64,000 nucleotides of DNA, taken from assembly GCA_964015055.1 (NCBI GenBank), contig CAXHBG010000001.1, positions 730 to 64,729 on the forward strand, read 5' to 3'. This document shows, piece after piece, positions 5,249 to 56,281 of the stretch; positions within the stretch are counted from its first letter, which is position 1, and the number at the start of each line of letters is the position of its first letter. The notes under the pieces are model-generated. The model had not been told where the DNA came from and made no database searches. It worked only from the letters and a program-made list of their open reading frames with translations. The stretch comes from an uncultured Thermoplasmata archaeon. GTDB taxonomy: Archaea; Thermoplasmatota; Poseidoniia; MGIII; CG-Epi1. The position numbers and the translations under genes are program-made.

Positions 5249-5779
5249 ATGGACGCTCTTCGGAAAATTTTACTTGCAATAGTTGCAATATCATTGTTCT
5301 TGCCTATCGCGCAAGCTGAAGACAAAATTTATCGCGTTGAAGGTTTACCTGAAGATTTGCACTATTCTACAGGAAAATCTTACGAGATTGTACTAACTGC
5401 AAATGATTATGCTTCAATTTCAGAAGTTAACATAAGCGTTACGAATGGATCTCTTAGTTCCACAGATTCATTTGAACCGGATGTATTCAACTTAATTCTA
5501 GAATCAAGTGATGAGGGATGGACTTTTTTCTGGCAAGCGCCCACCCAATCTTTTAGCTTAGGAGAAGGTAATTCTTTAATGGCTATAATTTTCACAGACA
5601 CAAACGGTCAAGTGTGGTCATCGTACGAGTCTATGCTTAGATCGCCAAAAATAATATCTCACAGTACGTCAGGAGTTCCTGACTGGGCAAATTCATTAGC
5701 ATGGGCTGGAGTTAGTATTACAGTTTTATGCTCGGTTGCAGGTTCTTATGTTCTCAGAAGAGATAAAATTAAGGAATAA
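5249..5779 (+). CDS. exported protein with N-terminal signal peptide and C-terminal membrane anchor
   Basis: A hydrophobic N-terminus ends in AQA. A C-terminal hydrophobic helix is followed by RRDKIKE. Confidence 0.5.
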   Translation: MDALRKILLAIVAISLFLPIAQAEDKIYRVEGLPEDLHYSTGKSYEIVLTANDYASISEVNISVTNGSLSSTDSFEPDVFNLILESSDEGWTFFWQAPTQSFSLGEGNSLMAIIFTDTNGQVWSSYESMLRSPKIISHSTSGVPDWANSLAWAGVSITVLCSVAGSYVLRRDKIKE

Positions 5780-6440: not shown

Positions 6441-7622
6441 TTAATCTAACCAAGGCACGCGTTGAATCGGTTTTGCACCTTCACAGATTCCTTCTCTTAC
6501 GATTGCATTAGGAAAAAGAGACTTCACTACGTCTTCGATGGTTTGATTTTTTGGTTTTTTACCAATTTCTAATTTCTCATTGTTGAGTATTGCGTTCGGA
6601 TATTTTTTCAAAAATTCGATTGCTCCGTCTTCCCAAGGGGCTGGGCCCTTGTGTGATACTATCTCAGGTAGTTTTCGCATTCCAGTTTCCAGAACAATAT
6701 AACCTTCACTACCCATATTTGCATTCCATGCAATAGGTTCAAAGTCATGAAGCGCTCTGTATATTTTCCTTCCTTGTTTCTGCAACCATGGCATTACGGT
6801 TTCTTCATTTTCTCCTGGAAGTGGTAAAATAATACTTGTCAGATTCCCTTGAAACTCTCTTTCCTTGTAATTAGGGAAAAAGAAATTATGTGATGGTTTA
6901 TCAAGAAACGATTTAGAAGCTAAAATGGCAGTTCCGAGTCCTTTCAAAGTTACTCCTGCAGCTACATTTCTTTTATCATCTACAGGATCACAAATCATCA
7001 CTGGAGATTCAGGAGTTTTCATTTTGTCAATAATAATTGGAGGCCTCCATTGGGACATTTCTTTTATTAGTTTTAAGAATCCTCCATATTTTATGCAAAG
7101 TATTTCTACTAAATAACCTGAAAATCCACCTACTGCAGAATTTGCACCATAAGCCCCAACAGCTTTTAGGAACTGTTTTGTTAGTCTTACCTCATTTTCT
7201 AACTCATTTATATTGGATATTACCCAATCAGTATGAAATGGCGTTCTATCCACTGCAGACACAGATTGAGTAGAGTCCTCTATTGCATAACAAGGTACTA
7301 GATCTATTCCTATACCATCTATTTCTCCTCTCAAATAGGGGTGCTGTGCGTAGAGTTCTTTACCGTTGGGTAGTATTTTCCTTGCCACGGCCAAGCCTTC
7401 TTTTTTCAAATCTGATCCCTTTTGAAATTTTAAAAAAATGTCAATGTCAGCTCCGGTCAGAAAAGTTCCTTTTGCTATCGATCCTACAACTTTAGGCTCA
7501 AAAGTCGACATTTCTAAAGCCTTTATTTTATTAAGAATGTTATCTCTTAAATTTATTATTTTTTCTTTTTCTTCAACTTTAGGTTGGACCTCTTTTAAGG
7601 CTTCTCTGATTATATCCTTCAC
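6441..7622 (-). CDS. cca: CCA-adding tRNA nucleotidyltransferase (archaeal class I)
   Basis: GSIAKGTFLTGADIDIF is the class I nucleotidyltransferase motif. The length and overall pattern are typical of archaeal CCA enzymes. Confidence 0.85.
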   Translation of the reverse strand: MKDIIREALKEVQPKVEEKEKIINLRDNILNKIKALEMSTFEPKVVGSIAKGTFLTGADIDIFLKFQKGSDLKKEGLAVARKILPNGKELYAQHPYLRGEIDGIGIDLVPCYAIEDSTQSVSAVDRTPFHTDWVISNINELENEVRLTKQFLKAVGAYGANSAVGGFSGYLVEILCIKYGGFLKLIKEMSQWRPPIIIDKMKTPESPVMICDPVDDKRNVAAGVTLKGLGTAILASKSFLDKPSHNFFFPNYKEREFQGNLTSIILPLPGENEETVMPWLQKQGRKIYRALHDFEPIAWNANMGSEGYIVLETGMRKLPEIVSHKGPAPWEDGAIEFLKKYPNAILNNEKLEIGKKPKNQTIEDVVKSLFPNAIVREGICEGAKPIQRVPWLD

Positions 7623-8122
7623 TCTTCTTCATCTGCATGGCTCACTTTACCTTTGCGCCATGCTTTTATTCTTTCTTTTTCGGCTCTTTTCCTTAAAGTT
7701 TCAATGTCATCTTTAACGGGAAGGAATATAGGAATTATGAATATTATAAGTCCGATAATTAGACATAATAATCCCCATAATATTTGTCTACCTGTAGTTA
7801 GGGCCTCTAAGAATAGAGAAAGGAGTACAAGAGATATAATGGTGGATATCCAAATTATTTTTCTGAATGCCTTTTCAGAAATGACGTATTTATCTTTTTC
7901 CTCTAGTATTTCAACTGAGAAATCAGCACTCGGAATTACTATATCTTCTTCTTTGCTAACCGGCCTCTCGGCTTTTAATTTTCGTAAGTAAAGGTGACCA
8001 GCTATTCCAGAAATTACAAATGTAGCTTGGCCGTATCCGGGGTCTCCAGCAGCCGTTGCAGCCCAAACAGCGTATAGCATAGTTAGCCAAATAGTCACTA
8101 TTATTGTATTATACAAATCCAT
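7619..8122 (-). CDS. polytopic membrane protein, last gene of the complex III-associated operon
   Basis: I trimmed the start to MDLYNTII to avoid a 67-nt overlap with the upstream gene. There are several hydrophobic helices. Confidence 0.45.
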   Translation of the reverse strand: MDLYNTIIVTIWLTMLYAVWAATAAGDPGYGQATFVISGIAGHLYLRKLKAERPVSKEEDIVIPSADFSVEILEEKDKYVISEKAFRKIIWISTIISLVLLSLFLEALTTGRQILWGLLCLIIGLIIFIIPIFLPVKDDIETLRKRAEKERIKAWRKGKVSHADEEE

Positions 8123-8132
8123 GTTCAAAATC

Positions 8133-9143
8133 TTAGACTTTACTTTCCATGGTAATTGCTTCAACAGGACAAGCAAATGCACAAAGAGTACATCCGACAC
8201 AAGTATCGTTCAAAATTAAAGCTTTTTTGGATTCAAACTGAGATGTTCTTGCGTTTAACTGCCAAGAAATCATATCAATTGATGCAAAGTTACAATAGTA
8301 AACACATTGAGTACAACCTATGCATTTTTCATTATTAACTAAGGCAATGAAATCTTTACCTTGAGGAAGAGATTTGAGAGTAATTTTTCTCAATTCTTTA
8401 AACATTTCCTTAGCTTTTTCTATACCTGTTGTAGGCAATTCCTCATTATCTAAAGCTTCTTTAACTCTCTTGAGCCACTTATTTGGTTTGTGAAAGAAAA
8501 GGGATGTAGTTCCCATTGCCTGATATGCAGTGGTACCTGCACTTTCTTCTAGAACAGTTTCAGCTTCAGACTCTACTACTGCCCCAGAGGCAAAAGAAGT
8601 CATACTTTCAACTAAATCTGACTGAAACGCACCATCACTATCTACACAAGCTAGCTTAGACATCGCTCCGTTCATCCATTGGTCAGCAGGATCTTCGAAA
8701 TCAACATCGCAATCTACTCTGTCGTGAATTCTGGAACCGCCCATGTCTTCCATAGTCTTGTCCCAATCTTTTCCGGATTGACAGAATAAATCATAACCTG
8801 TATCGCCAAGTGCACAAATTGAGAAATGAGTGTTGGTTAGTATTTTGCCAACACCTACCGCAGCTTCGTACAATTCTTCCGCATTATCTGGCATTTCTCC
8901 TTCTCCCCATGTTGAACAGACAATCATTACTCTGGACATTCCCGACATTGAATTGATATCAAAACCGTCCATGTCGTGAACGGTTGGATTCAATCCGTAT
9001 TTGGAAGCCTCTTTCTTCCATTTTCCTGCAAGTCCTTCGGAGTTGCCGCTTTGGGAGCCGTACAAAATATGTAAGTCGCGATTTCCTTCTGTTGCAAATG
9101 CAGTAATATCTACATCAGACACTATTTTCCATCCTCTAAACAA
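8133..9143 (-). CDS. flavodoxin-like FMN domain fused to a 2x[4Fe-4S] ferredoxin domain
   Basis: The N-terminal ILYGSQSGNSEGLA is the flavodoxin FMN loop. The C-terminus has CIGCTQCVYYC and CVGCTLCAFACP cluster motifs. Confidence 0.7.
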   Translation of the reverse strand: MFRGWKIVSDVDITAFATEGNRDLHILYGSQSGNSEGLAGKWKKEASKYGLNPTVHDMDGFDINSMSGMSRVMIVCSTWGEGEMPDNAEELYEAAVGVGKILTNTHFSICALGDTGYDLFCQSGKDWDKTMEDMGGSRIHDRVDCDVDFEDPADQWMNGAMSKLACVDSDGAFQSDLVESMTSFASGAVVESEAETVLEESAGTTAYQAMGTTSLFFHKPNKWLKRVKEALDNEELPTTGIEKAKEMFKELRKITLKSLPQGKDFIALVNNEKCIGCTQCVYYCNFASIDMISWQLNARTSQFESKKALILNDTCVGCTLCAFACPVEAITMESKV

Positions 9144-10048
9144 GCGACTAAGAATTGCATTAAATCCATCATTTCATAATCATGGTGATGCCCATCTTCA
9201 GGATTCATTCTTTCTTCGTTAAGCATACACTGCATGTGCATGTAGCATTTTGGACATCCACCTAGCATAAGGTCAATTCCGGCGTCAGTACCTTGATCTA
9301 ATCTTTTTCGACGTACAGCTTTAGTAGCATCATTACAATACATCATCGAAGATACGCCACAGCACAATGCTCTCTCTTTGTTGTTTTCAAGCTCAACCAT
9401 TGTAGCTCCATCGACTAATTGTATCAAATCTCTAGGAGCTTCATACTCTCCCATCATTCTTCCTAGCCGGCAGGGATCATGGTAAGAAACGGTCACATTT
9501 TCAGGAGCTTTGAACTTCAATCCTCTACCCTGTAAAGTTTGTGTAATATGTTCAACTTTTATCCCAAGTATGTTGGGCAAATCGTAGTCTACAGCAAAAG
9601 TACGATAGCATTCAGCACATGAGCACGTTAGAATCTTTATTCCAGATTCTTTTAATCGCCTCATGTTATGTTCCTTTAAAGCATCATAAACTTCCAAATT
9701 ACCTTGCCATAGCTGGTCATGGCCTGAACATTTGAACACATTCATATCCAGAATTAAAGGGTCGATTTCTGCATAATTTAATAATTTAATTGAAGCAGCA
9801 GCAATTGATGCGTGATCAGCGTCTCCTTTGTTCAAGTGTGTAAATTTGACTTCAACATCCATAAAGTCGACACATCCAGGAAAATATCCATATTCATGAT
9901 ATCTTTCAGGCTTCCATTCATTTGATTCTTTGTTCATTGCATCATCTACAATTAGTCTTTCAAAAAGTGGATGAGGAATTGATCTTGCGTATGTTTTTTG
10001 TCTAGGCTTATCGCTCATAAGCGACACCTCCTGCAGGAGTGCCTCCAA
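9122..10048 (-). CDS. CCG-domain Fe-S protein, HdrB/GlcF/SdhE-like
   Basis: The sequence is cysteine-rich, with a signature LCCGVS and a final GCPKC. Further Cys clusters are FPGC, TCSCAEC and HDPC. The true start may be the internal MSDKPRQ at 10018. Confidence 0.7.
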   Translation of the reverse strand: MEALLQEVSLMSDKPRQKTYARSIPHPLFERLIVDDAMNKESNEWKPERYHEYGYFPGCVDFMDVEVKFTHLNKGDADHASIAAASIKLLNYAEIDPLILDMNVFKCSGHDQLWQGNLEVYDALKEHNMRRLKESGIKILTCSCAECYRTFAVDYDLPNILGIKVEHITQTLQGRGLKFKAPENVTVSYHDPCRLGRMMGEYEAPRDLIQLVDGATMVELENNKERALCCGVSSMMYCNDATKAVRRKRLDQGTDAGIDLMLGGCPKCYMHMQCMLNEERMNPEDGHHHDYEMMDLMQFLVACLEDGK

Positions 10049-11144
10049 TACTAGGTAAATCTAGTGCGGCACCTTCAGTGGATGCCCCCAATGTAGCTAG
10101 AAGCCTTTGTTCTAGCACATAATCTACGTATTCGATATTTTGTGGACATACTGCAGTACACATTCCACAGGAAATACAGGACCAAAGAGCTACTCCATCG
10201 TGTTTATTTTGGAATGTATTGAATATAATATTTAATTCATGCTCACCTTCCATGTCTCTAACGGGACATATGTCATCACATAATCCACATTGATAGCAAC
10301 GATTTAGTTTGAATTCATAAATACGTTGCATTCTCCTATCTTGGATACCTTTAGTGTAAAGGTCAAATCTTTCTTCATCACTTAGGGGTTTGGCACCTTC
10401 AGATCGTCTTCTATCAAGGAAAAGGTAAGTTAACAGTGCACCTCCGATGGGACCCCACAGCGTAAGTGTGTATAGCAGGTCTGTAGTAACTTCTGGGTAA
10501 TATAGAGCAATATTGGCATTAATTGAAAAAACTGACAGCATGACTACCATTATGATGCCGTATACTCCAATAGCAGCCCTAACTGGGTCTTCAATAGGTC
10601 TTCTTTCATGTCCTCGATTTATTACATCACCGTATTGAGGATCAATGATGGCACCCAATGCCCTATCGATAAATGGAACAGCTACTACTAGCCCAATGAC
10701 AAGACCTTGTACAAGGGTTCCCCATACTTTTGCACTCATTAAAAATAGTTCAAAATCTTCTAGCCCCAAGAAGGGAATCATAGACAGAGGTAATCCAATT
10801 TTTAAATCGGTAGCAACTTTAAGGCATCCAAAAGCCCACAATAAATACCAATCAGGTAGTGGCGGAGGATAAGCAGTACCGGCTGTTGGGTCTGCAGATT
10901 CGTGTAGTGGTGGTGGAATGAATGCCCCTAAGTAAAATAAAATAGATATGACATAGAAAGTATAGATGGCATCTCTTGATAATTCATGAGGGTAAAGAGG
11001 TTCACCCTTGACTAAACCAGCTTCTAGTACAGAGTGATCCTCACGGTTTTCAAGTTTTCTAATAGTATCAAGCTCTTGTTGCTCTTTTATCGATTCGGCT
11101 ATCATTTCAGCAGCATCGTCTTCCAAAATTTGCTCTTCGCCCAT
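10008..11144 (-). CDS. cytochrome b6f subunit-IV-like membrane domain fused to a C-terminal 2x[4Fe-4S] ferredoxin (HdrC-like) domain
   Basis: ADPTAGTAYPPPLPDWYLLW matches the PEWY Qo-site motif of PetD (the C-terminal half of cytochrome b). After this come CYQCGLCDDICPV and CISCGMCTAVCPQ. The start overlaps the cytochrome b6 stop by 1 nt. Confidence 0.75.
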   Translation of the reverse strand: MGEEQILEDDAAEMIAESIKEQQELDTIRKLENREDHSVLEAGLVKGEPLYPHELSRDAIYTFYVISILFYLGAFIPPPLHESADPTAGTAYPPPLPDWYLLWAFGCLKVATDLKIGLPLSMIPFLGLEDFELFLMSAKVWGTLVQGLVIGLVVAVPFIDRALGAIIDPQYGDVINRGHERRPIEDPVRAAIGVYGIIMVVMLSVFSINANIALYYPEVTTDLLYTLTLWGPIGGALLTYLFLDRRRSEGAKPLSDEERFDLYTKGIQDRRMQRIYEFKLNRCYQCGLCDDICPVRDMEGEHELNIIFNTFQNKHDGVALWSCISCGMCTAVCPQNIEYVDYVLEQRLLATLGASTEGAALDLPSIGGTPAGGVAYER

Positions 11145-12100
11145 TAGTGAGGTTCAGCCTCCCCTTGTATCCATACTAAAGCCATGTGAATAATCATTAG
11201 AACAGTACCTACCAAAGGGAGCACAAATATGTGCAACCAGTACATTCTTGTGACAGTATCTCCTGTAACTTGTGTTCCTCCGAATACAATTTGTGCCATC
11301 AAAGGCCCCATTGCAGGAATAGAAGTAGCCATTTCGAGACCTATAGCAGCGGCAGCATAACCAAGGGCATCCCAAGGCAATAAGTAACCGGTGTATCCAA
11401 AGAAAATAGTAACCATCAAAAGTATGACTCCTAAAATCCAATTTACTTCTCTCGGATTTCTATAAGCACCTACAAAATAAACTCTCATCATGTGCAAGAA
11501 TACTGCTGCAACCATGAAGTGAGCTGACCAATGATGAATGGCTCTAATAATGTATCCAAAAGAGACCTGAGTCATGATTAGTTCCATTGATTGATATGAT
11601 CCAGAGGTAGCATTACCATCTTCGTCAAAAACTATTTCACCATCAGGAACATAGTAGAAACCAAGATAAATTCCGGTGATCACTAAAACAATATAGGCGA
11701 AAAAGGAAAGTCCACCTAACGAGTAAAATGGATACCAATACCAAACAGATTTTACATTATATCTTTCAGTATGAGATTGAGGCATTGTTCGTCCACTTGA
11801 AGGTAAAAGTGTGAATACAACTGAATAATATTCTCTTTTGGCCAGAGAAGCATATCTGTGTAAAGCAAATCTTTCATCAAACCAGTTCCATGTCGCCAAT
11901 ATAACTCTAGGTAATGTTCCTGAAACATACAAATAGCCTACAGTTAAAACAGCCATAAGTAATTGTAAAAAGATTAATGGGAATGTATATTTTCTCATCA
12001 ATTCTTCAATAAGAGGAGGGTCACCAGAAGCTGCACTAGCTGGCAGTGTTAAGAACGTAATACTTCCTAAAAGTGTAGCTAAGAATAGTTTTATTTTCAT
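11144..12100 (-). CDS. petB: cytochrome b6-like protein (N-terminal half of cytochrome b, complex III)
   Basis: IRAIHHWSAHFMV, HMMRVYF and GYLLPWD are hallmark cytochrome b/b6 motifs with heme His ligands. I set the start at MKIKLFL, which gives a 4-nt ATGA overlap with the Rieske stop. The listed ORF starts 24 nt earlier. Confidence 0.85.
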   Translation of the reverse strand: MKIKLFLATLLGSITFLTLPASAASGDPPLIEELMRKYTFPLIFLQLLMAVLTVGYLYVSGTLPRVILATWNWFDERFALHRYASLAKREYYSVVFTLLPSSGRTMPQSHTERYNVKSVWYWYPFYSLGGLSFFAYIVLVITGIYLGFYYVPDGEIVFDEDGNATSGSYQSMELIMTQVSFGYIIRAIHHWSAHFMVAAVFLHMMRVYFVGAYRNPREVNWILGVILLMVTIFFGYTGYLLPWDALGYAAAAIGLEMATSIPAMGPLMAQIVFGGTQVTGDTVTRMYWLHIFVLPLVGTVLMIIHMALVWIQGEAEPH

Positions 12101-12771
12101 CCTTGTCCACAATATTTGAGCCACTCGATTTGAGTCATTAGCCCAATTAAACCTCCATCTTTTTCAGCTATTGGGACTACAGGAAGGCCGTACGGAGCAG
12201 GTCCTTCTAATAATTCAGCAGCCATAACTTCACGTCCTTGTTCATCAACATTTTTAGTAACTGAGAGGGGATCAAAAAGAGATAAATGGCATGGACATAA
12301 AAACATATTTTCATAATCGTTTCCGCTAATGGTACTAGTTCCTTCCGCAGTGAATACGGGTTTGCAGCATAAGTGTGGGCATTTATAAGTATGATATGCC
12401 ATTAGGTAAGCGTTTCCATCGTCGACGCTTATTCCTAAACCCTCCATAGTTGGTTCAGCGGGAACTTTGGCTAGAGCAAGCTGTATTTCACAAGTACCTA
12501 ATTCTTGTTCCATCTCTTTTGGTCCCCAATTCACTATGGCTACATCCCATAGATTGAAATCCTCTTTTTTAGCAATATTGCCAGCCATATTTTCATACCA
12601 TTTTCCGCTCTCAGATTTATAAGTTAAGGTCTCGTGTGCATCATCCTCATTACACCTTGTTACGGGTGGAGGAAGTAATGTCTTAAGTGCAGGAACAGTT
12701 AAAGCAGCAGTCATTCCAGCGCCGGCTAATCCAATTGCACCTTGCAGAAATCCTCTTCTTGTTATTTTCAC
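12097..12771 (-). CDS. petC: Rieske [2Fe-2S] protein with Tat signal
   Basis: RRGFLQG is a twin-arginine motif. CPHLCC...CPCHLS are Rieske boxes I and II. Confidence 0.85.
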   Translation of the reverse strand: MKITRRGFLQGAIGLAGAGMTAALTVPALKTLLPPPVTRCNEDDAHETLTYKSESGKWYENMAGNIAKKEDFNLWDVAIVNWGPKEMEQELGTCEIQLALAKVPAEPTMEGLGISVDDGNAYLMAYHTYKCPHLCCKPVFTAEGTSTISGNDYENMFLCPCHLSLFDPLSVTKNVDEQGREVMAAELLEGPAPYGLPVVPIAEKDGGLIGLMTQIEWLKYCGQG

Positions 12772-12773
12772 TA

Positions 12774-12977
12774 TTACCTTTCAAGTTTTGTAATAACCTT
12801 ACTCCTCCTTTTCTTCAATTCTAAAACATCGGGCAAGAATGATCTTCTGTAGAAATCGAGCATCAGCCCCAGTATCATAAATGCCATAGCCAAGGTAAAT
12901 GACAAAAATTGTTGATCCCATCCTTGTATGATTCCGTAAATAAATAACGAGTCATACATTATTTCAAGGACTAGCAA
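12774..12977 (-). CDS. small membrane protein (TTG start), possibly longer or fused upstream
   Basis: The listed ORF is 67 aa with one or two TM helices. The same frame stays open for 60 more codons upstream without ATG, GTG or TTG (see findings). Confidence 0.4.
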   Translation of the reverse strand: MLVLEIMYDSLFIYGIIQGWDQQFLSFTLAMAFMILGLMLDFYRRSFLPDVLELKKRRSKVITKLER

Positions 12978-13125: not shown

Positions 13126-13821
13126 TTAACCTCGGTAATGGGAACTACCTCCTCGTATTACTATGTATGCAAATAAAACCATCACAAATACAACAGCCAT
13201 TGATATCAGAGCAATCCAGTACTGCATTAGGCTTACGCCTAGTTCATGTATTGAAACTTCCTCAGATACTATTTGTGGAGTACCTATGGAGACAGCAGAG
13301 ATGTAGCCCCATTGATCTCCATTTGTTCCTACCCCATTTACTACATTGTAATAAATTGTGAATAGAGCATCTCCAGCACCTTCGCTAGGAGATGTCCATT
13401 GGAACGTCCAATTGCGTTGTGCGTTACTATCAGCATTGTGTGAAATGTATTTTCCGCCTTCACCGATCCAATAAAGCGCATCAGTCTGAAATGCGCCCTC
13501 GCTAACCTCAGCTAGGAACCCACCATATCGAATAGCATCAGGTTCAGAAATTACAGTTGTATCATTGATTACAAGTGAAATATTGTATGTTGAATCAGGA
13601 ATATACTTTGAAGGTATGCCCTCGAGCATGTACATACCTTCGTCAAGTTGTTCATCCATGTGACAAGAGCAACCGTTGGCTATACTGTCTTTTGCCCAGT
13701 CCTCCCCAGCTCCTTGCTGAGCACCTCCTGCAGGGTAACCATTGACACTCATACCGACTGACATGACGGTTATCAATAAGATTGCTAATAGTGCGTAAGT
13801 TCCTTTTTGATTTATAGCCAA
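13126..13821 (-). CDS. exported protein with signal peptide, about 170-aa ectodomain and C-terminal TM anchor
   Basis: The N-terminal hydrophobic leader is MAINQKGTYALLAILLITVMSV. A C-terminal helix is followed by RGGSSHYRG. The ectodomain contains GCSCHMDEQLDEGMYM. Confidence 0.55.
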   Translation of the reverse strand: MAINQKGTYALLAILLITVMSVGMSVNGYPAGGAQQGAGEDWAKDSIANGCSCHMDEQLDEGMYMLEGIPSKYIPDSTYNISLVINDTTVISEPDAIRYGGFLAEVSEGAFQTDALYWIGEGGKYISHNADSNAQRNWTFQWTSPSEGAGDALFTIYYNVVNGVGTNGDQWGYISAVSIGTPQIVSEEVSIHELGVSLMQYWIALISMAVVFVMVLFAYIVIRGGSSHYRG

Positions 13822-51024: not shown

Positions 51025-52143
51025 ATGATTGAAATTTACATTATTTTGAGTTTGGTGATTGGCATTGGAATAGGTTATTTTTTAGCAAGCCAAAATAGCT
51101 CTACGAACGATGAGGACATTGATTCTATCAAGAAAGAAATGGAAAATACTTTCAAGGCTTTGGCTCTTGACGTCAACAGATCTAATACTGAAGAATTTTT
51201 CAAATTAGCGAATGACAAATTTCAAGGACTCAGCAAGGAATCAGATAAAAATTTAGAAACTAAAAAGAAATTAATTGATGAAAATCTAAATGAAATGTCA
51301 AAAAGACTCAAATCCATTGAAGATGCATCTATTAAGTTAAATGAAAATTTAGAATCAACCAATAGTCAAACTAAAGATTTAACGGAAACAACAATTAAGT
51401 TGAGAGAAATTCTATCATCCTCTCAGAAAAGAGGTCAGTGGGGTGAGCGTATTGTAGAGGATATCCTAAATGTGATTGGCCTCATGGAAGGTGTGAATTA
51501 TACAAAGCAAGGAGTTGTAGAATCTGGTGAACGTCCAGATTTTACTTTTATTCTTCCCAAAGAAAAAGTAATCAATATGGACGTTAAATTTCCTCTTGCC
51601 CATTACGAGAGGTATATAGATTCTGATGATGAACATATTCGTGGATCAGAGAAGGCAGCATTTTTGAAAGATGTTAAGAAACATGTAAGAGATATTACTA
51701 AGCGAAGCTATATCGATCCATCTTCTGGGACGCTTGATTATGTTCTAATGCTTGTTCCTAATGAGTCAATTTATTCATTTATTAATAAAGAAGATAGTGC
51801 AGTAATTGATTTTGCTCTTGAAAATAAAGTTCTACTTTGCTCACCATTAACGCTCTATGCAATTCTTTCTCTAATTCATCAGGCCACTCGTAATTTTGCA
51901 ATGGAGGAGAAGGCTACTGAAGTTATGAATTTACTTAATGCATTTAGACTTCAATGGTCAAAATATGTCGAAGCAATGGATAAAATGGGTAGAAGAATTG
52001 ATGATGCCAAAAGAGAATTTAGCAATTTAGTCACAACTCGTACCAATCAACTTCAGAAGCCTCTTGATAAAATAGATAATATCACCAATTTAGTAGAAGA
52101 TTCAGAAAAGGCGAATAGATTAGAAGGGCAACAACGTTTCTAA
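51025..52143 (+). CDS. rmuC: DNA recombination protein RmuC family
   Basis: An N-terminal TM helix is followed by coiled coils. RGQWGERIVEDIL...ERPDFTFILP...DVKFPLAHY is the RmuC core. Confidence 0.75.
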   Translation: MIEIYIILSLVIGIGIGYFLASQNSSTNDEDIDSIKKEMENTFKALALDVNRSNTEEFFKLANDKFQGLSKESDKNLETKKKLIDENLNEMSKRLKSIEDASIKLNENLESTNSQTKDLTETTIKLREILSSSQKRGQWGERIVEDILNVIGLMEGVNYTKQGVVESGERPDFTFILPKEKVINMDVKFPLAHYERYIDSDDEHIRGSEKAAFLKDVKKHVRDITKRSYIDPSSGTLDYVLMLVPNESIYSFINKEDSAVIDFALENKVLLCSPLTLYAILSLIHQATRNFAMEEKATEVMNLLNAFRLQWSKYVEAMDKMGRRIDDAKREFSNLVTTRTNQLQKPLDKIDNITNLVEDSEKANRLEGQQRF

Positions 52144-53555
52144 AGATCTTTCATTGATGAAACTAGTTCAGTCATCATTTGCTTTCCATCACCAAATAGC
52201 ATCATAGTTTTATCTTCATAGAATAAATCGTTGTCTACTCCTGCGTATCCAACAGATAAAGATCGTTTTACAATTACTACTACACCAGCTTTATCGGCGT
52301 CTATAATTGGCATTCCAGCGAGAGGCCCTTCTCCACTTCTTGCTGCAGGGTTAACAGTATCATTTGCCCCAACAACTAAAGCAACATCACATTCTCCCAT
52401 TTCTGAGTTAATGTCGTCCATTTCGATTAGCTTTTCATAAGGAACACTAGCCTCTGCTAGCAATACATTCATGTGACCAGGCATTCTACCAGCTACAGGA
52501 TGTATTCCATATTTCACTTCGCAGCCATTTGCTTCTAAGATTTCAGCAAATTCTCTAACTTGATGTTGACATTGTGATACTGCCATTCCGTATCCTGGAA
52601 TTATAACACATTTTGATATGCCATCACAAACCATGGCTACCTCTTCAGGGTCAGAGCCTACTTTAGTTCTTGTTACCTGCTCTTTGTCGGACCCGCCAAA
52701 AGATTTGAACAATACATCAATTAATTCTCGGTTCATTGCCTTACACATTATGTTTGTTAGGATTAAGCCAGCTGCACCTACCATTGATCCTGCAATGATT
52801 AATACATTATTTCCGATTATGAAGCCAGTAAATGCTGCTGCAATACCTGAGAGGGAATTTAGAAGACTTACAACGACAGGCATATCAGCTCCCCCGATAG
52901 GGAGAACAAACAATATTCCGAGAATGGAAGATAATACAATGATTGCTACAACATAATCTTGATTTCCAGGTTCTTCGATTGTCATGTAAAGCAACCCTAC
53001 TATTGAAATTAGTAAAAGTCCTTTTACATAATTCAACCATTCTGGCCCCCAGGTTGGAGTTCTATACCAGGTACCAAATAATTCAATTCCTCCTTTCAAT
53101 TTCATCATGGCTAATAAACTTCCACTGAGAGTAACCCAGCCGACTAACGCAGAAAGCCCAATTGCAGTCCATGCAACATGTAATTCCAACCCACTTGGAA
53201 GGTCGTTTTCGTTAATTCTTCTAAATACTTCAGAAGCAGCCACGAGAGCGCTAGCAGCACCTCCGAAGCCATTGAAGAGTGCAACCATTTCGGGCATTCC
53301 AGTCATCTGTACTCTTACAGCCATTAAGTATCCGATAGAAGCACCAATAGCTAATCCAGCTCCAATTAGGATGAAATTATTTATTTCACCAAAATCCATT
53401 TGAGCGATTGTAACAATTACAGCAACCAGCATACCCATTGAGCCGTACAAGTTCCCTGTTGGAGCAGTACGAGGATGACCTAGTTTCTTTAATCCTAAAA
53501 TAAATAATATTGAAGCGAACAAATATCCAATATCCCATACAGCTTCGTCCATCAT
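52140..53555 (-). CDS. pntB: NAD(P) transhydrogenase subunit beta
   Basis: The N-terminal membrane domain is followed by a C-terminal dIII NADP-binding domain, with VIIPGYGMAV and GANDTVNPAA. Confidence 0.9.
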   Translation of the reverse strand: MMDEAVWDIGYLFASILFILGLKKLGHPRTAPTGNLYGSMGMLVAVIVTIAQMDFGEINNFILIGAGLAIGASIGYLMAVRVQMTGMPEMVALFNGFGGAASALVAASEVFRRINENDLPSGLELHVAWTAIGLSALVGWVTLSGSLLAMMKLKGGIELFGTWYRTPTWGPEWLNYVKGLLLISIVGLLYMTIEEPGNQDYVVAIIVLSSILGILFVLPIGGADMPVVVSLLNSLSGIAAAFTGFIIGNNVLIIAGSMVGAAGLILTNIMCKAMNRELIDVLFKSFGGSDKEQVTRTKVGSDPEEVAMVCDGISKCVIIPGYGMAVSQCQHQVREFAEILEANGCEVKYGIHPVAGRMPGHMNVLLAEASVPYEKLIEMDDINSEMGECDVALVVGANDTVNPAARSGEGPLAGMPIIDADKAGVVVIVKRSLSVGYAGVDNDLFYEDKTMMLFGDGKQMMTELVSSMKDL

Positions 53556-53860
53556 TTACCTCCTCTTTTACCTGCAATCATATTCAACATTCTATTTGTC
53601 ACAGCAAACCCTCCAACTACGTTAATTGTAGCTAAGATTAGGGCGAAAAAAGCAAGCCAAGCTGCAAAGCCTGGGTCTCCTCCGTTAAAGTCGGTGTTTG
53701 AGAAAATTAATGCACCTACTATTGTAATTCCAGATATAGCATTAGCCCCAGACATAAGAGGAGTATGAAGCGTAGGAGGTACTTTTGTGATTAGTTCAAA
53801 TCCTAAAAAAATAGCCAATATGAAAACAGTTACAGCTCCAATTAGAGTGATTAATTCCAT
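53552..53860 (-). CDS. pntAB: NAD(P) transhydrogenase subunit alpha, membrane part (alpha2)
   Basis: The 102-aa protein has three TM helices and sits between pntAA and pntB. Confidence 0.8.
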   Translation of the reverse strand: MELITLIGAVTVFILAIFLGFELITKVPPTLHTPLMSGANAISGITIVGALIFSNTDFNGGDPGFAAWLAFFALILATINVVGGFAVTNRMLNMIAGKRGGK

Positions 53861-55032
53861 TACTTCATAGCCTCCATTAGTTTAGAATGATTATCATGCA
53901 CTTTTCCATTTTCAGCAATTAAAATTCCACCATATCCTGCTGAAATACCACCTTCATCTCCGGTGAGTACTTGTTCTTCTTGATTTATAGCCAACTTACC
54001 TTCGTCAACTAAAACAGTTACAAAATTGGTAACGTTGTTTGAATAAAGCATCGATGCAGTATTTGGAACTGTTCTACACAGCATAGGTATTCCTATAATT
54101 GTTATTCCATCTTTTTTAATTATTTCTCCTTCTTTACTTCCAGCAATATTGCCACCAGTATCTGTATTCATGTCAACAATTACAGAACCTTCTTTCATTT
54201 CTTTTGTCATCTTATCATTGTTTTCCTTACTGAAGAATAGTTTAGGTGCATCTGCACCGAATAATCTAGCAGTAGTGATTACAACATCAGCGTCTTTTAC
54301 AGCATCCATTAATGCATTATCAAATGCTTCTTGAAGTCCCTTATCCGTAAAGAGAGATGCATGTCCACTTGAGCTTTCAGCATCCTTCCAGCCGGGTACT
54401 TCGATAAATTTAGCACCTAAACTTTCAGTATCTTGCTTAGCAGCTAATCTAACATCTATAGCTTGCACTGCAGCTCCTAATCTCTTTGCAGTTGCTATTG
54501 CTTGAAGGCCAGCAACAGCAGCCCCTTGAATTATGAACTTTGCAGGCCTTACAGTTCCAGCAGATGTCATCATCATAGGAACCATTTTTGCAATATTTTG
54601 AGATCCCATCAAAGCTGCTTTGTAGCCAGATAAGTTATCTTGACTAGAGTTAACATCCATAGACTGTCCTTTTGATAATCTTCTTGGAATAACTTCTAAA
54701 GACAATAGAGTAATACCTGCATTAACTATTTCTTTTGTTTGTTCTAAATTTCTAAATGGATCAGCTATACATGCTAGCATCTGACCTTTTTTCATATCTT
54801 TGAAGTTTGGAACATCAATCGATGCAATTAAGTCACATTTCATTATTTCATCAAATGATTTGGTTTTTGCACCTTTTTCTTCATATTCAGCATCAGAGTA
54901 TCCTGATTTTTCTCCAGCACCTTTTTCAATTAATACTTCAAAACCTAGTTTCATTAATTTAGGTATTGAAACAGGTACAATAGCTACACGAGTTTCTTTC
55001 TCGTTATCCTCTTTGGGTATTCCTATACGCAT
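53860..55032 (-). CDS. pntAA: NAD(P) transhydrogenase subunit alpha, NAD(H)-binding part (alpha1)
   Basis: The alanine-dehydrogenase-like fold has GAAVAGLQAIATAKRLGA as its Rossmann motif. Confidence 0.85.
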   Translation of the reverse strand: MRIGIPKEDNEKETRVAIVPVSIPKLMKLGFEVLIEKGAGEKSGYSDAEYEEKGAKTKSFDEIMKCDLIASIDVPNFKDMKKGQMLACIADPFRNLEQTKEIVNAGITLLSLEVIPRRLSKGQSMDVNSSQDNLSGYKAALMGSQNIAKMVPMMMTSAGTVRPAKFIIQGAAVAGLQAIATAKRLGAAVQAIDVRLAAKQDTESLGAKFIEVPGWKDAESSSGHASLFTDKGLQEAFDNALMDAVKDADVVITTARLFGADAPKLFFSKENNDKMTKEMKEGSVIVDMNTDTGGNIAGSKEGEIIKKDGITIIGIPMLCRTVPNTASMLYSNNVTNFVTVLVDEGKLAINQEEQVLTGDEGGISAGYGGILIAENGKVHDNHSKLMEAMK

Positions 55033-55111: not shown

Positions 55112-56281
55112 TTACTTTCCAATTTCACGAGCAATTACTAATCTTTGAACTTCTTGAGTTCCTTCATAAATTTGGGTGATTTTTGCATCACGGAAAAATC
55201 TTTCTACTGGGAAATCCTTTGTGTATCCGTATCCGCCTAATACCTGTACAGCTCTTTCTGAAACCCACATTGCAGTATCACCTGCACTTAGCTTTGCAAT
55301 TGAAGCTTCAAGTGTATGGCGCGATGATCCATTTTCATAATGTTCTTGTTTAGCCCATGCAGCTTTGTAAACTTGTAATCTTGCAGCATCAATTCTAACA
55401 GCCATATCTGCCAGATAATTACTTATTGATTGGTGAGCAGCTATTGGTTTACCGAAAGTTTCTCGTTCTTTTGAATATTTCAGTGCAGCTTCGTATGCTC
55501 CTTGTGCAATACCAAGTCCCTGAGCAGCTATACCTATTCTTGAATTGTCTAACGCATTCATTGCAATTGGAAATCCTTTGCCTACATCTCCAAGAACGTT
55601 AGCTTTTGGTACTTTACATTCATTTAAAATTAATGTGCATGTATCACTTGAACGGATTCCCAGTTTGTCTTCTTTCTTTCCAATTTCAAATCCTTCAAAC
55701 CCTTTTTCAACTATAAAACAAGTTACTCCCCCGTGGCTCTTTTTACCATAATCAGGGTGATTAGTTACTTTAGCAAATAGAACGAAGAGATCTGCAGTTG
55801 TTCCGTTTGTAACCCACATTTTTTCACCATTCAAAGTATAGTGCTCACCATCATCTGTAGCCCTTGCAACCATTGCAGCAGCATCTGTACCTGAACCGGC
55901 CTCACTCAAGGAATATGCACCCAAGAATTCTCCAGAGGCTAATTTCGGTAAATATTTTTCTTTTTGCTCTTCATTTCCACTCAGTGCTATTGTCATCGAG
56001 CAAAGTCCGACATGGACTGCTATCATGACTCCTAAAGATGGATCGACTCTTGACAATTCTTCGATAACAATTGCCTCCGAAATATCATCTAATTTCTGAC
56101 CACCGTATTTTTCAGGTATGGTCATTCCTGCAAATCCTAGTTCTGCGAATTTTTTGAATTCCTCAATAGGTGCAATTTGTTCTTTATCTCTCTTGTTGCA
56201 AGTAGGCCCAGCAACATCTTCAGCAAATTCACGTACCATTTCGCGAATCATTTTTTGGTCATCAGTTTCTGCAAAATCCAT
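55112..56281 (-). CDS. acyl-CoA dehydrogenase
   Basis: YSLSEAGSGTDAA, GEKMWVTNG and a C-terminal QVLGGYGY give the ACAD three-domain pattern. Confidence 0.85.
   Translation of the reverse strand: MDFAETDDQKMIREMVREFAEDVAGPTCNKRDKEQIAPIEEFKKFAELGFAGMTIPEKYGGQKLDDISEAIVIEELSRVDPSLGVMIAVHVGLCSMTIALSGNEEQKEKYLPKLASGEFLGAYSLSEAGSGTDAAAMVARATDDGEHYTLNGEKMWVTNGTTADLFVLFAKVTNHPDYGKKSHGGVTCFIVEKGFEGFEIGKKEDKLGIRSSDTCTLILNECKVPKANVLGDVGKGFPIAMNALDNSRIGIAAQGLGIAQGAYEAALKYSKERETFGKPIAAHQSISNYLADMAVRIDAARLQVYKAAWAKQEHYENGSSRHTLEASIAKLSAGDTAMWVSERAVQVLGGYGYTKDFPVERFFRDAKITQIYEGTQEVQRLVIAREIGK

Follow-up and report, generated by a model that had tools for sequence, protein, structure and literature searches.

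A subunit IV-ferredoxin fusion in the Rieske/cytochrome b complex of MGIII and MGII archaea and its possible role in cytoplasmic electron entry

What does an iron-sulfur domain do at the end of a membrane subunit of complex III? The question is raised by an uncultured archaeon of the MGIII lineage (Thermoplasmatota; Poseidoniia; CG-Epi1), in which a 64,000-nucleotide stretch of DNA (the window; GenBank assembly GCA_964015055.1, contig CAXHBG010000001.1, positions 730 to 64,729 of the forward strand) carries a single gene for subunit IV, the counterpart of the C-terminal half of cytochrome b, joined to a ferredoxin domain. A preliminary description, made from the letters of the window, had pointed out this fusion, placed its two clusters on the cytoplasmic face of complex III, and raised the possibility that a frameshift or sequencing error had joined two genes. 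We report here that the protein is almost certainly subunit IV of a b6-type Rieske/cytochrome b complex with an HdrC/EtfD-type domain, and we consider what it may do. The gene and its parts are as follows.

10008..11144, minus strand: subunit IV-ferredoxin (subunit IV-Fd) fusion gene, ATG start, 378 aa.
10395..10988, minus strand: subunit IV membrane part, aa 53-250, from an AlphaFold2 (AF2) model, hydropathy, profile matches to QcrB, cytochrome b and PetD, and a Foldseek match to QcrB.
10971..10976, minus strand: Arg57-Asp58, aligning with K251-D252 of R. sphaeroides cytochrome b in a profile alignment.
10845..10856, minus strand: PDWY, aa 97-100, the Qo/Qp-site motif equivalent to PEWY, invariant in 41 orthologues.
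10077..10307, minus strand: HdrC/EtfD-type dicluster ferredoxin domain, aa 280-356, from Pfam and PDB matches, invariant Cys, pLDDT 81-97 and the lowest ratio of nonsynonymous to synonymous substitution rates (dN/dS).
10263-10298, minus strand: ferredoxin motif 1, C283-P294, CxxCxxCxxxCP, invariant.
10143-10178, minus strand: ferredoxin motif 2, C323-P334, CxxCxxCxxxCP, invariant.
10011..10076, minus strand: C-terminal tail, aa 357-378, clade-specific and predicted to be disordered, pLDDT ~35.

The 378-residue open reading frame (ORF) noticed in the preliminary description was confirmed at exactly its coordinates, and the three strings quoted there lie at aa 91-105 (YPPPLPDWYLLWAFG), aa 283-295 (CYQCGLCDDICPV) and aa 323-335 (CISCGMCTAVCPQ). 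The same single fusion ORF is present in 39 MGIII loci from independent metagenome-assembled genomes (MAGs) and single-cell genomes (AG-343-N02, AG-343-J07 and AH-321-L02) at 59-93% identity, the nearest being MIZA01000012 (93%). A survey of its spread, which the description had recommended, found it also in MGII, in other Thermoplasmatota and in a Halobacteria-like MAG, and there are 128 subunit IV-Fd clusters (90% identity clustering) in a metagenome protein collection. The description had also allowed that the Cys motifs might not be conserved, but PDWY and all eight Cys are invariant both in the 41 complete orthologues and in a 14-member alignment, with identity down to 29-34%. Compared with nine MGIII orthologues, dN/dS is 0.02-0.09 for the protein overall and 0-0.07 for the ferredoxin domain, the lowest within it, values that are rough because dS is saturated in most pairs; the ferredoxin domain retains 84-100% amino acid identity in these orthologues even where the membrane part has 62-92%, and purifying selection, as judged by dN/dS, spans the junction between the two. 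The tail is absent from most orthologues, has a dN/dS of 0.16-0.8, and overlaps the start of the following CCG gene with its last codons. An artefact, in which separate petD-like and ferredoxin genes were merged by a frameshift or in assembly, thus has a vanishingly small probability, and we reject it on the strength of the 39 independent MGIII loci with their single-cell genomes, the recurrence in other groups and in the metagenome clusters, and the selection acting across the junction.

The fusion gene also fits closely among its neighbours. The cytochrome b gene runs into it through TAATG, with GGGGAGG before, it overlaps the CCG gene by 11 nt (ATGAGCGATAA), and the CCG gene in turn meets the flavodoxin/ferredoxin gene at a TAGTG overlap; these junctions are typical of translational coupling. 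A word-indexed protein search with alignment A1 gave almost only MGIII, and the wider family came to light when 1.84 billion representative proteins were searched exhaustively with HMMER, which gave 319 matches at E<=1e-3, of them 12 at E<=1e-30. The subunit IV-Fd family occupies little sequence space but is very abundant in the ocean.

By sequence and by model, the membrane part is a homologue of the C-terminal half of cytochrome b, and it resembles the long cytochromes b in having helices E-H. Pfam family PF00032 gives no match at E<=0.01 to the window protein itself, so that homology to subunit IV rests on NCBIfam, profile-versus-PDB, orthologue Pfam and fold evidence. The NCBIfam model of actinobacterial QcrB matches aa 45-217 with its C-terminal half (1.4e-7), a PDB search with the window protein alone finds QcrB at 1.5e-4, and a profile of 34 family members (A2) finds actinobacterial QcrB at 2.1e-15, Rhodobacter cytochrome b at 2e-13 and b6f subunit IV at 5.4e-11. 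Among orthologues PF00032 does match, at 8.3e-10 in locus L042 and also in proteins P0124, P0155 and P0151. The AF2 model built on A2 (pLDDT 75.6, pTM 0.66; pLDDT 81-97 over aa 190-350) has helix E at 53-75, an ef-loop helix at 99-110, and helices F, G and H at 138-167, 187-215 and 221-250, and Foldseek aligns it with QcrB at probability 1.0 over ~239 columns with a modest E value (2e-3). In the profile alignment PDWY falls onto PEWY of R. sphaeroides cytochrome b, and together with the profile and Foldseek matches this bears out the PetD-like segment with a Qo-site motif that was first noticed. R57 is nearly invariant among orthologues, and the Asp beside it aligns with Asp252 of R. sphaeroides cytochrome b, which from established bc1 knowledge we take to be the Qi-site Asp; its retention suggests that the n-side quinone site is still used. 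Subunit IV-Fd is encoded together with a b6-type cytochrome b and a Rieske protein, in a gene order that is conserved among MGIII loci.

The side of the membrane on which the ferredoxin domain lies follows from the number of helices. In the hydropathy profile three hydrophobic segments stand out and a fourth is weaker, the basic residues DRRRSEGAK directly follow helix H, and in the AF2 model two short helices then precede the ferredoxin domain. The N-terminus of all subunit IV and cytochrome b proteins is on the n-side, and with four transmembrane (TM) helices, by both AF2 and hydropathy, and basic residues after the last of them, the ferredoxin domain comes to lie on the n-side as well, on the cytoplasmic face where the preliminary description had put it. 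A location outside the cell was rejected because of the four helices, the basic residues after helix H and the lack of a Tat signal. Additional evidence against it comes from the MGII form (L046:7001-9799, L047:7001-9781), which has a ~330-aa insertion with several Cys between helices G and H that by topology lies outside the cell.

The ferredoxin domain belongs to a larger unit. Pfam recognises a dicluster domain at aa 280-337 (Fer4_8 3.8e-10, Fer4_17 7e-7), its best solved matches in a PDB search with the window protein are FwdF (5e-7) and HdrC (1.1e-5), the family profile finds HdrC at 1e-10, and two cubane [4Fe-4S] clusters are predicted. The 2x[4Fe-4S] type assigned in the preliminary description agrees with the Pfam matches and the eight invariant Cys, but the domain is not the stand-alone ferredoxin that it was taken for. 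It is the HdrC-like half of an HdrD/EtfD-type module, split in the window after the ferredoxin domain and continued in the adjoining CCG gene, the first of three downstream genes.

9122..10018, minus strand: CCG-domain protein, the HdrB/EtfD-like half of the module, 298 aa from ATG 10018, Pfam CCG 2.9e-16.
8133..9122, minus strand: protein with a flavodoxin (FMN) domain and an RnfB-like 2x[4Fe-4S] domain, Pfam Flavodoxin_1 1.4e-26, Fer4_21 8.5e-14.
7619..8122, minus strand: conserved membrane protein, 167 aa from ATG 8122, by synteny the last gene of the cluster in MGIII.

The first CCG motif of the CCG protein (KCSGHD) is of the 4-Cys type and the second (LCCGVSS) of the 5-Cys type. In NCBIfam it matches the C-terminal part of TfrB (3.6e-24), with further matches to GlpC, DsrK, TmcB and HdrB. 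It aligns with EtfD (9ojn_A) at 8.9e-14, and all ligand Cys inside the aligned stretch match (KCSG with ETCTG, CAEC with CPHC, DPC with DPC, CCG with CCG, and CPKC with CPFC); the first EtfD D1 ligand, Cys503, is outside that stretch and is matched by pattern alone (FPGC). For the combined ferredoxin and CCG part, the best solved relative of the family profile in the PDB is M. smegmatis EtfD (9ojn, 3.9e-29), and an AF2 model of the one-chain homologue P0121 (pLDDT 75.5) matches 9ojn better than LutA and HdrB, with 620 aligned columns and an E value of 9e-14.

The flavodoxin/ferredoxin protein probably starts at GTG 9122, within the TAGTG overlap, the longest ORF beginning at 9143. It also matches the FMN domain of CysJ in NCBIfam, and an rnfB match at 2.4e-10 is below cutoff and confined to the dicluster domain; no other rnf genes are present in the operon, so this is not an RnfB accompanied by RnfACDEG. 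The gene for the 167-aa membrane protein begins 10 nt past the preceding stop in all MGIII loci, and its product, with a weak DUF3792 match alone and no informative family, may serve as an additional subunit or anchor the soluble Fe-S proteins.

The relatives show the same unit in other arrangements. Subunit IV, ferredoxin and both CCG domains form one chain of 606-699 aa in loci L041-L043 (in L042, PF00032, Fer4 and two CCG domains), further one-chain homologues are P0121, P0126, P0130, P0132, P0134, P0145 and P0146, and the one-chain MGII family (Poseidoniaceae and Thalassarchaeaceae by NCBI names; operons examined, L046 and L047) has 917-942 aa and at least 459 clusters. This HdrD/EtfD layout of a dicluster domain and two CCG domains in one chain is found neither in the window nor in any MGIII, where the CCG protein has its own, coupled gene. 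The split form recurs in another lineage (L049), where subunit IV-Fd is followed by a CCG gene and then a small ferredoxin. MGII, bathypelagic MGIII and the soil relatives have Hdr-type CCG, with 5-Cys motifs, in both positions. In the fused operons there is always a ferredoxin-type partner gene, either next in line or close by, although the partner itself varies: flavodoxin plus dicluster in the clade of the window, two dicluster domains in other MGIII, and dicluster plus MvhD/FlpD in soil Thermoplasmata. The fusion proteins are annotated as 'HdrD', 'Fe-S oxidoreductase', 'PreA' or 'ferredoxin'.

Two operons encode an unfused subunit IV (L050:4918-5637, L051:1314-2144), and neither contains CCG or ferredoxin genes, so that the Fe-S parts travel together as an add-on. 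We also note that the unfused forms (further relatives are P0138, P0148, P0151, P0155, P0158 and P0159) end in YExKLNxxYYKxR, exactly where the ferredoxin domain of the window starts (YEFKLNRCYQCG), and they look like cases of secondary loss of the Fe-S domain rather than leaving the fused forms to repeated gain. The one exception is the Halobacteria-like MAG (L048:3172-4182), where subunit IV-Fd is present without a CCG gene and is followed instead by a 103-aa protein and a UbiA-family gene; evidently the pair of cubanes does not need the CCG extension in order to work.

How far does this assembly resemble known systems? Like PetD and the C-terminal half of cytochrome b in bc1 and QcrB, the membrane part has helices E-G and an ef loop with PDWY/PEWY, its N-terminal motif GxPxxPHExxRD aligns with PFWPYFIIKD of bc1, and, like PetD, its gene directly follows those for a b6-type cytochrome b and a Rieske protein. 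It is not PetD in the strict sense: PetD has three helices, a C-terminus on the p-side and no cofactor domain, whereas the window protein has a fourth helix, as in bc1 and QcrB, and an n-side 2x[4Fe-4S] domain. No b6f or bc1 structure with an Fe-S domain on subunit IV was among the profile-versus-PDB matches, and we know of no such solved complex.

The closest likeness on the Fe-S side is to EtfD (the Rv0338c/MSMEG homologue, 9ojn), which similarly combines a membrane b-type protein, two cubane sites and two CCG domains in a 4-Cys then 5-Cys pattern with aligned ligand Cys. The EtfD wire consists of D1 (a linear [3Fe-4S] cluster, 4 Cys), D2 (a noncubane [4Fe-4S] cluster, 5 Cys), the D3 and D4 cubanes, haem b and menaquinone, with clusters 7-9 A apart and electrons running inward from cytoplasmic electron transfer flavoprotein (ETF; PMC13083937). 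It differs from the window in being one chain, with ETF as donor, where the window splits after the ferredoxin domain, and in its membrane part, a five-helix mono-haem anchor of the NarI/HdrE kind rather than a Rieske/cytochrome b subunit. The membrane partner of the module is thus subunit IV and not the NarI/HdrE-type protein that characterises HdrD and EtfD. HdrC-like dicluster and HdrB-like CCG domains are likewise shared with HdrD (HdrDE), HdrBC, DsrK, TmcB, GlpC, TfrB and LutA; the HdrD/DsrK-type enzymes are docked on NarI-type cytochromes b or are soluble, and most use a thiol/disulfide or hydroxy-acid substrate, of which none is evident for the window module. QmoC of sulfate reducers also fuses an HdrC-like Fe-S domain to a membrane b-type cytochrome, and its NCBIfam model matches the Fe-S domain weakly (1e-4). 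In QmoC, however, the Fe-S domain is N-terminal, so that the order is reversed, and the membrane part is HdrE-like and belongs to no Q-cycle complex.

Fusions of cytochrome b complex subunits have been discussed (Dibrova 2017), and two further systems bear comparison. The anammox Rieske/cytochrome b complexes (Kuste4569-4574, Kustd1480-1485) are b6-type complexes with an n-side Fe-S chain, in this case of [4Fe-4S] and [3Fe-4S] clusters modelled to connect to haem bn/cn (PMC12954380), and their NAD(P) oxidoreductase subunit is the nearest earlier example of such a chain on a complex of this kind. Unlike the window system they are bacterial, have multihaem c subunits and are proposed to bifurcate outward, and the Fe-S chain resides in an FAD/NAD(P) subunit of its own, which belongs to a different family and is not fused to subunit IV. 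The Bacillus-type QcrC also has a redox domain at the C-terminus of subunit IV, but this is a haem c domain on the p-side of a three-helix protein, whereas the fusion in the window is on the n-side. The QcrC fusion of subunit IV to cytochrome c serves the high-potential chain.

These features bring us to the path that electrons might take, and we give about an even chance to a model in which the fused domain forms part of a cytoplasmic electron-entry wire fixed to complex III and leading into its n-side haem and quinone site. Helix H would return the chain to the cytoplasm and to the two-cubane domain, and with the products of the next two genes this would build, on the n-side of the complex, a chain of up to six Fe-S clusters and an FMN distributed over subunit IV-Fd, the CCG protein and the flavodoxin/2x[4Fe-4S] protein. 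A low-potential cytoplasmic donor, for which reduced ferredoxin from 2-oxoacid oxidoreductases and possibly ETF are candidates, would reduce the outer flavodoxin/2x[4Fe-4S] protein, and electrons would then pass through the CCG clusters and the two subunit IV cubanes to haem bn, with haem cn also on the route in relatives that keep the CxGG Cys. Quinone would be reduced at the n-side site by haem bn (and cn), and the quinol would then be oxidised at the PDWY Qp site via the Rieske protein, towards a p-side acceptor. In this model we infer three things: that the clusters are close enough to haem bn for electrons to tunnel, which way the electrons flow, and which donor supplies them.

We arrive at entry rather than exit because the module is homologous to EtfD, because the Qi-type Asp has been kept, because all partners are of low potential and the lifestyle is that of an aerobic heterotroph, and because of two remarks in print. 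In the first, Diamond et al. 2022 found hdrD-like and rnfB-like genes beside the complex III genes of Angelarchaeales and suggested an entry point for ferredoxin (PMC9038741), and Tully 2019 reported that MGII have cytochrome b and Rieske proteins with no canonical bc1, and an orphan RnfB with RnfACDEG absent (PMC6336850). A soluble n-side donor (ferredoxin/FNR) to the Qn site of b6f has long been proposed and is debated (PMC7908018).

Several observations weigh against electron entry, among them that in MGII and deep MGIII the full Hdr-type CCG/CCG motifs are kept, which would be compatible with catalysis at a CCG site, and that locus L048 has the ferredoxin domain with no CCG gene, so that the wire is dispensable. 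In known structures helix H lies at the edge of cytochrome b, and proximity of the ferredoxin domain to haem bn is thus not guaranteed. The haem-cn Cys has been lost in the clade of the window (YSLGG), and it is to haem cn that proposals for n-side entry in b6f usually appeal. Elsewhere in the HdrD family, in HdrDE and DsrMK, electrons run from quinol to a cytoplasmic disulfide.

The last of these points leads to the reverse direction, in which the wire would carry electrons from the b-haem chain to a cytoplasmic acceptor, which we regard as possible but doubtful. In one form, quinol would drive the reduction of a substrate of the disulfide type at the CCG clusters, in the manner of HdrDE or DsrMK, and this would agree with the matches of the CCG protein to the CCG parts of TfrB, DsrK, TmcB and HdrB, with the 5-Cys motifs kept in both positions, as in catalytic HdrB and HdrD, by MGII, bathypelagic MGIII and soil Thermoplasmata, and with the MvhD/FlpD domain of the L042/L043 partner, which is typical of Hdr-linked systems. 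However, Poseidoniia are aerobic heterotrophs with no known coenzyme M/coenzyme B or Dsr system (general knowledge; Tully 2019, PMC6336850), and the first CCG motif of the window is a 4-Cys motif like that of EtfD, where this site is buried and takes no part in catalysis (PMC13083937). Alternatively, bifurcation at the Qp site could send one electron through bp and bn into the Fe-S chain so as to reduce flavodoxin or ferredoxin, much as bifurcation is the proposed source of NAD(P)H in the anammox complexes, which have an Fe-S/FAD subunit on the n-side (PMC12954380). Electron flow from bp through bn to a low-potential acceptor would nonetheless oppose both the membrane potential and the redox potential, and output of either kind has to contend with the inward direction of the closest homologue, EtfD, and with the retained Qi-type Asp. 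A 'sideways' Q-cycle of this sort, with bifurcation at PDWY, one electron going to the Rieske protein and the other by way of bp, bn and the wire to cytoplasmic flavodoxin or ferredoxin, seems unlikely to us. If true, an aerobic archaeon would be making low-potential reductant directly at complex III, in an archaeal counterpart of the unproven proposal for the anammox Rieske/cytochrome b complexes.

Inward flow might also mean that complex III carries a grafted ETF:quinone oxidoreductase with the function of EtfD. ETF reduced by acyl-CoA and amino-acid dehydrogenases would then dock on the CCG protein, and the flavodoxin/ferredoxin protein would be an accessory or an alternative donor. EtfD is the best homologue of the ferredoxin and CCG part, the 4-Cys/5-Cys pattern of the window is EtfD-like, and the window encodes an acyl-CoA dehydrogenase (55112-56281, minus strand), an enzyme that needs ETF and an ETF acceptor; MGII and MGIII have moreover been described as protein and fatty-acid degraders. 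The last point is from Tully 2019 (PMC6336850). Yet there are no etfAB genes in the operon or in the 64-kb window, and a dedicated ferredoxin-type partner gene is always linked, and we consider this explanation quite unlikely. Very improbable, finally, is an Fe-S domain with no role in through-put, an appendage that would regulate the complex through its structure, its assembly or the sensing of redox state. Locus L048, with subunit IV-Fd and no CCG gene, would suit such a role, and the EtfD homologue Rv0338c of M. tuberculosis was once termed a putative redox sensor (in the reference list of PMC13083937), but the strict conservation of eight Cys, the lowest dN/dS within the protein and the constant linkage to further Fe-S, flavin or MvhD electron-transfer proteins all argue against it. 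We note separately that the window encodes a PntAB transhydrogenase (52140-55032, minus strand), which together with the acyl-CoA dehydrogenase bears on the question of the cytoplasmic donor.

Upstream of the fusion gene the operon encodes the remainder of the complex.

11144..12124, minus strand: cytochrome b6-type N-terminal half, PF00033 1.4e-38, cytochrome b6 3e-55 (NCBIfam).
12097..12771, minus strand: Rieske iron-sulfur protein, boxes CPHLCC and CPCHLS, Tat signal, TIGR01416 3e-8, TAT signal 1.3e-4.
12774..12977, minus strand: small membrane protein DUF7318, Pfam 5.5e-12, synteny.
13126..13821, minus strand: extracytoplasmic 'choice-of-anchor V' (anchV) protein with a C-terminal TM anchor, NF041895 7.5e-18, alignment A3.

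Cytochrome b has four His at b6-type spacing, as read from its sequence, and an N-terminal signal/TM extension. In the window and the epipelagic MGIII clade the haem-cn motif YCLGG (the CxGG motif in helix A), which is kept in bathypelagic MGIII, MGII and other Thermoplasmatota, is replaced by YSLGG, so that the haem-cn Cys is lacking. This is one of three changes seen in the epipelagic clade, the others being the first CCG motif becoming a 4-Cys CSG and a flavodoxin replacing a dicluster domain in the partner, the latter in several epipelagic subclades (compare L027-L033 and L038). All three lower the demand for iron or haem and may reflect iron sparing in surface water. Strict co-occurrence of haem-cn Cys loss, CSG motif and flavodoxin partner was considered and rejected, the overlap being partial only. 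The N-terminal ~130 aa of cytochrome b (11735-12124, minus strand) comprise in MGIII a signal-like segment and an extra TM helix, in the position where relatives have a large extracellular region with an anchV-like domain and four Big_5 domains, and this extension looks like a remnant left by gene fission.

The first gene of the operon encodes anchV, an exported protein with a beta-rich head (weak Reeler matches) and an invariant Cys53-His54 (GCSCH); the motif is GCxCH in MGII and MGIII and CGxTxxCH in others. Relatives are found at L042:3228-3830, L043:1169-1780, L046:4023-4799, L047:3997-4806, L048:595-1122 and L049:3-695. In soil Thermoplasmata (L042/L043) anchV is fused to the N-terminus of cytochrome b, and in L048 its slot holds a class-I cytochrome c (CASCH) with a C-terminal anchor that is similar by eye. 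A PDB sequence search with anchV gave no match, and to our knowledge CxCH is not a haem-c motif; the layout nevertheless recalls cytochrome f, and anchV is a candidate for, and probably is, a p-side redox subunit standing in for cytochrome c1/f. Just past the operon, an ORF at 5249-5779 (plus strand) with a signal peptide, a C-terminal TM segment and no Cys-His motif resembles a paralogue of the anchV head domain at the equivalent MGIII position (~27% identity to anchV there). DUF7318 lies between the p-side subunit and the Rieske protein in every operon observed, in MGIII, MGII, other Thermoplasmatota and the Halobacteria-like MAG, and also in the unfused operon L050 (the L051 contig ends before that position), and it is probably a core subunit, so far uncharacterised, of the b6-type complexes of archaea.

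A search of the literature for the fusion or for MGIII complex III turned up only the passing remarks of Diamond 2022 (PMC9038741) and Tully 2019 (PMC6336850), neither of which recognised the 'HdrD' as subunit IV itself. The components are all of known kinds, and we found no description of a Rieske/cytochrome b complex and an HdrD/EtfD wire joined covalently through subunit IV. The fusion is the standard form of complex III in MGII and MGIII, which are among the most abundant planktonic archaea, and it has been masked by misleading annotations. It would explain two loose ends in the MGII literature, namely why part of complex III seems to be 'missing' and why RnfB occurs as an orphan, and it would be a natural, hard-wired case of the debated injection of electrons from an n-side donor at the Qn site of b6f. 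With the donor chain fused to subunit IV, the question of Qn entry becomes directly testable by structure and spectroscopy. The finding bears on how ferredoxin is re-oxidised in aerobic archaea that use ferredoxin-dependent 2-oxoacid oxidoreductases. In the marine archaeon of the window, cytoplasmic electron carriers probably plug straight into complex III by way of the fused domain.

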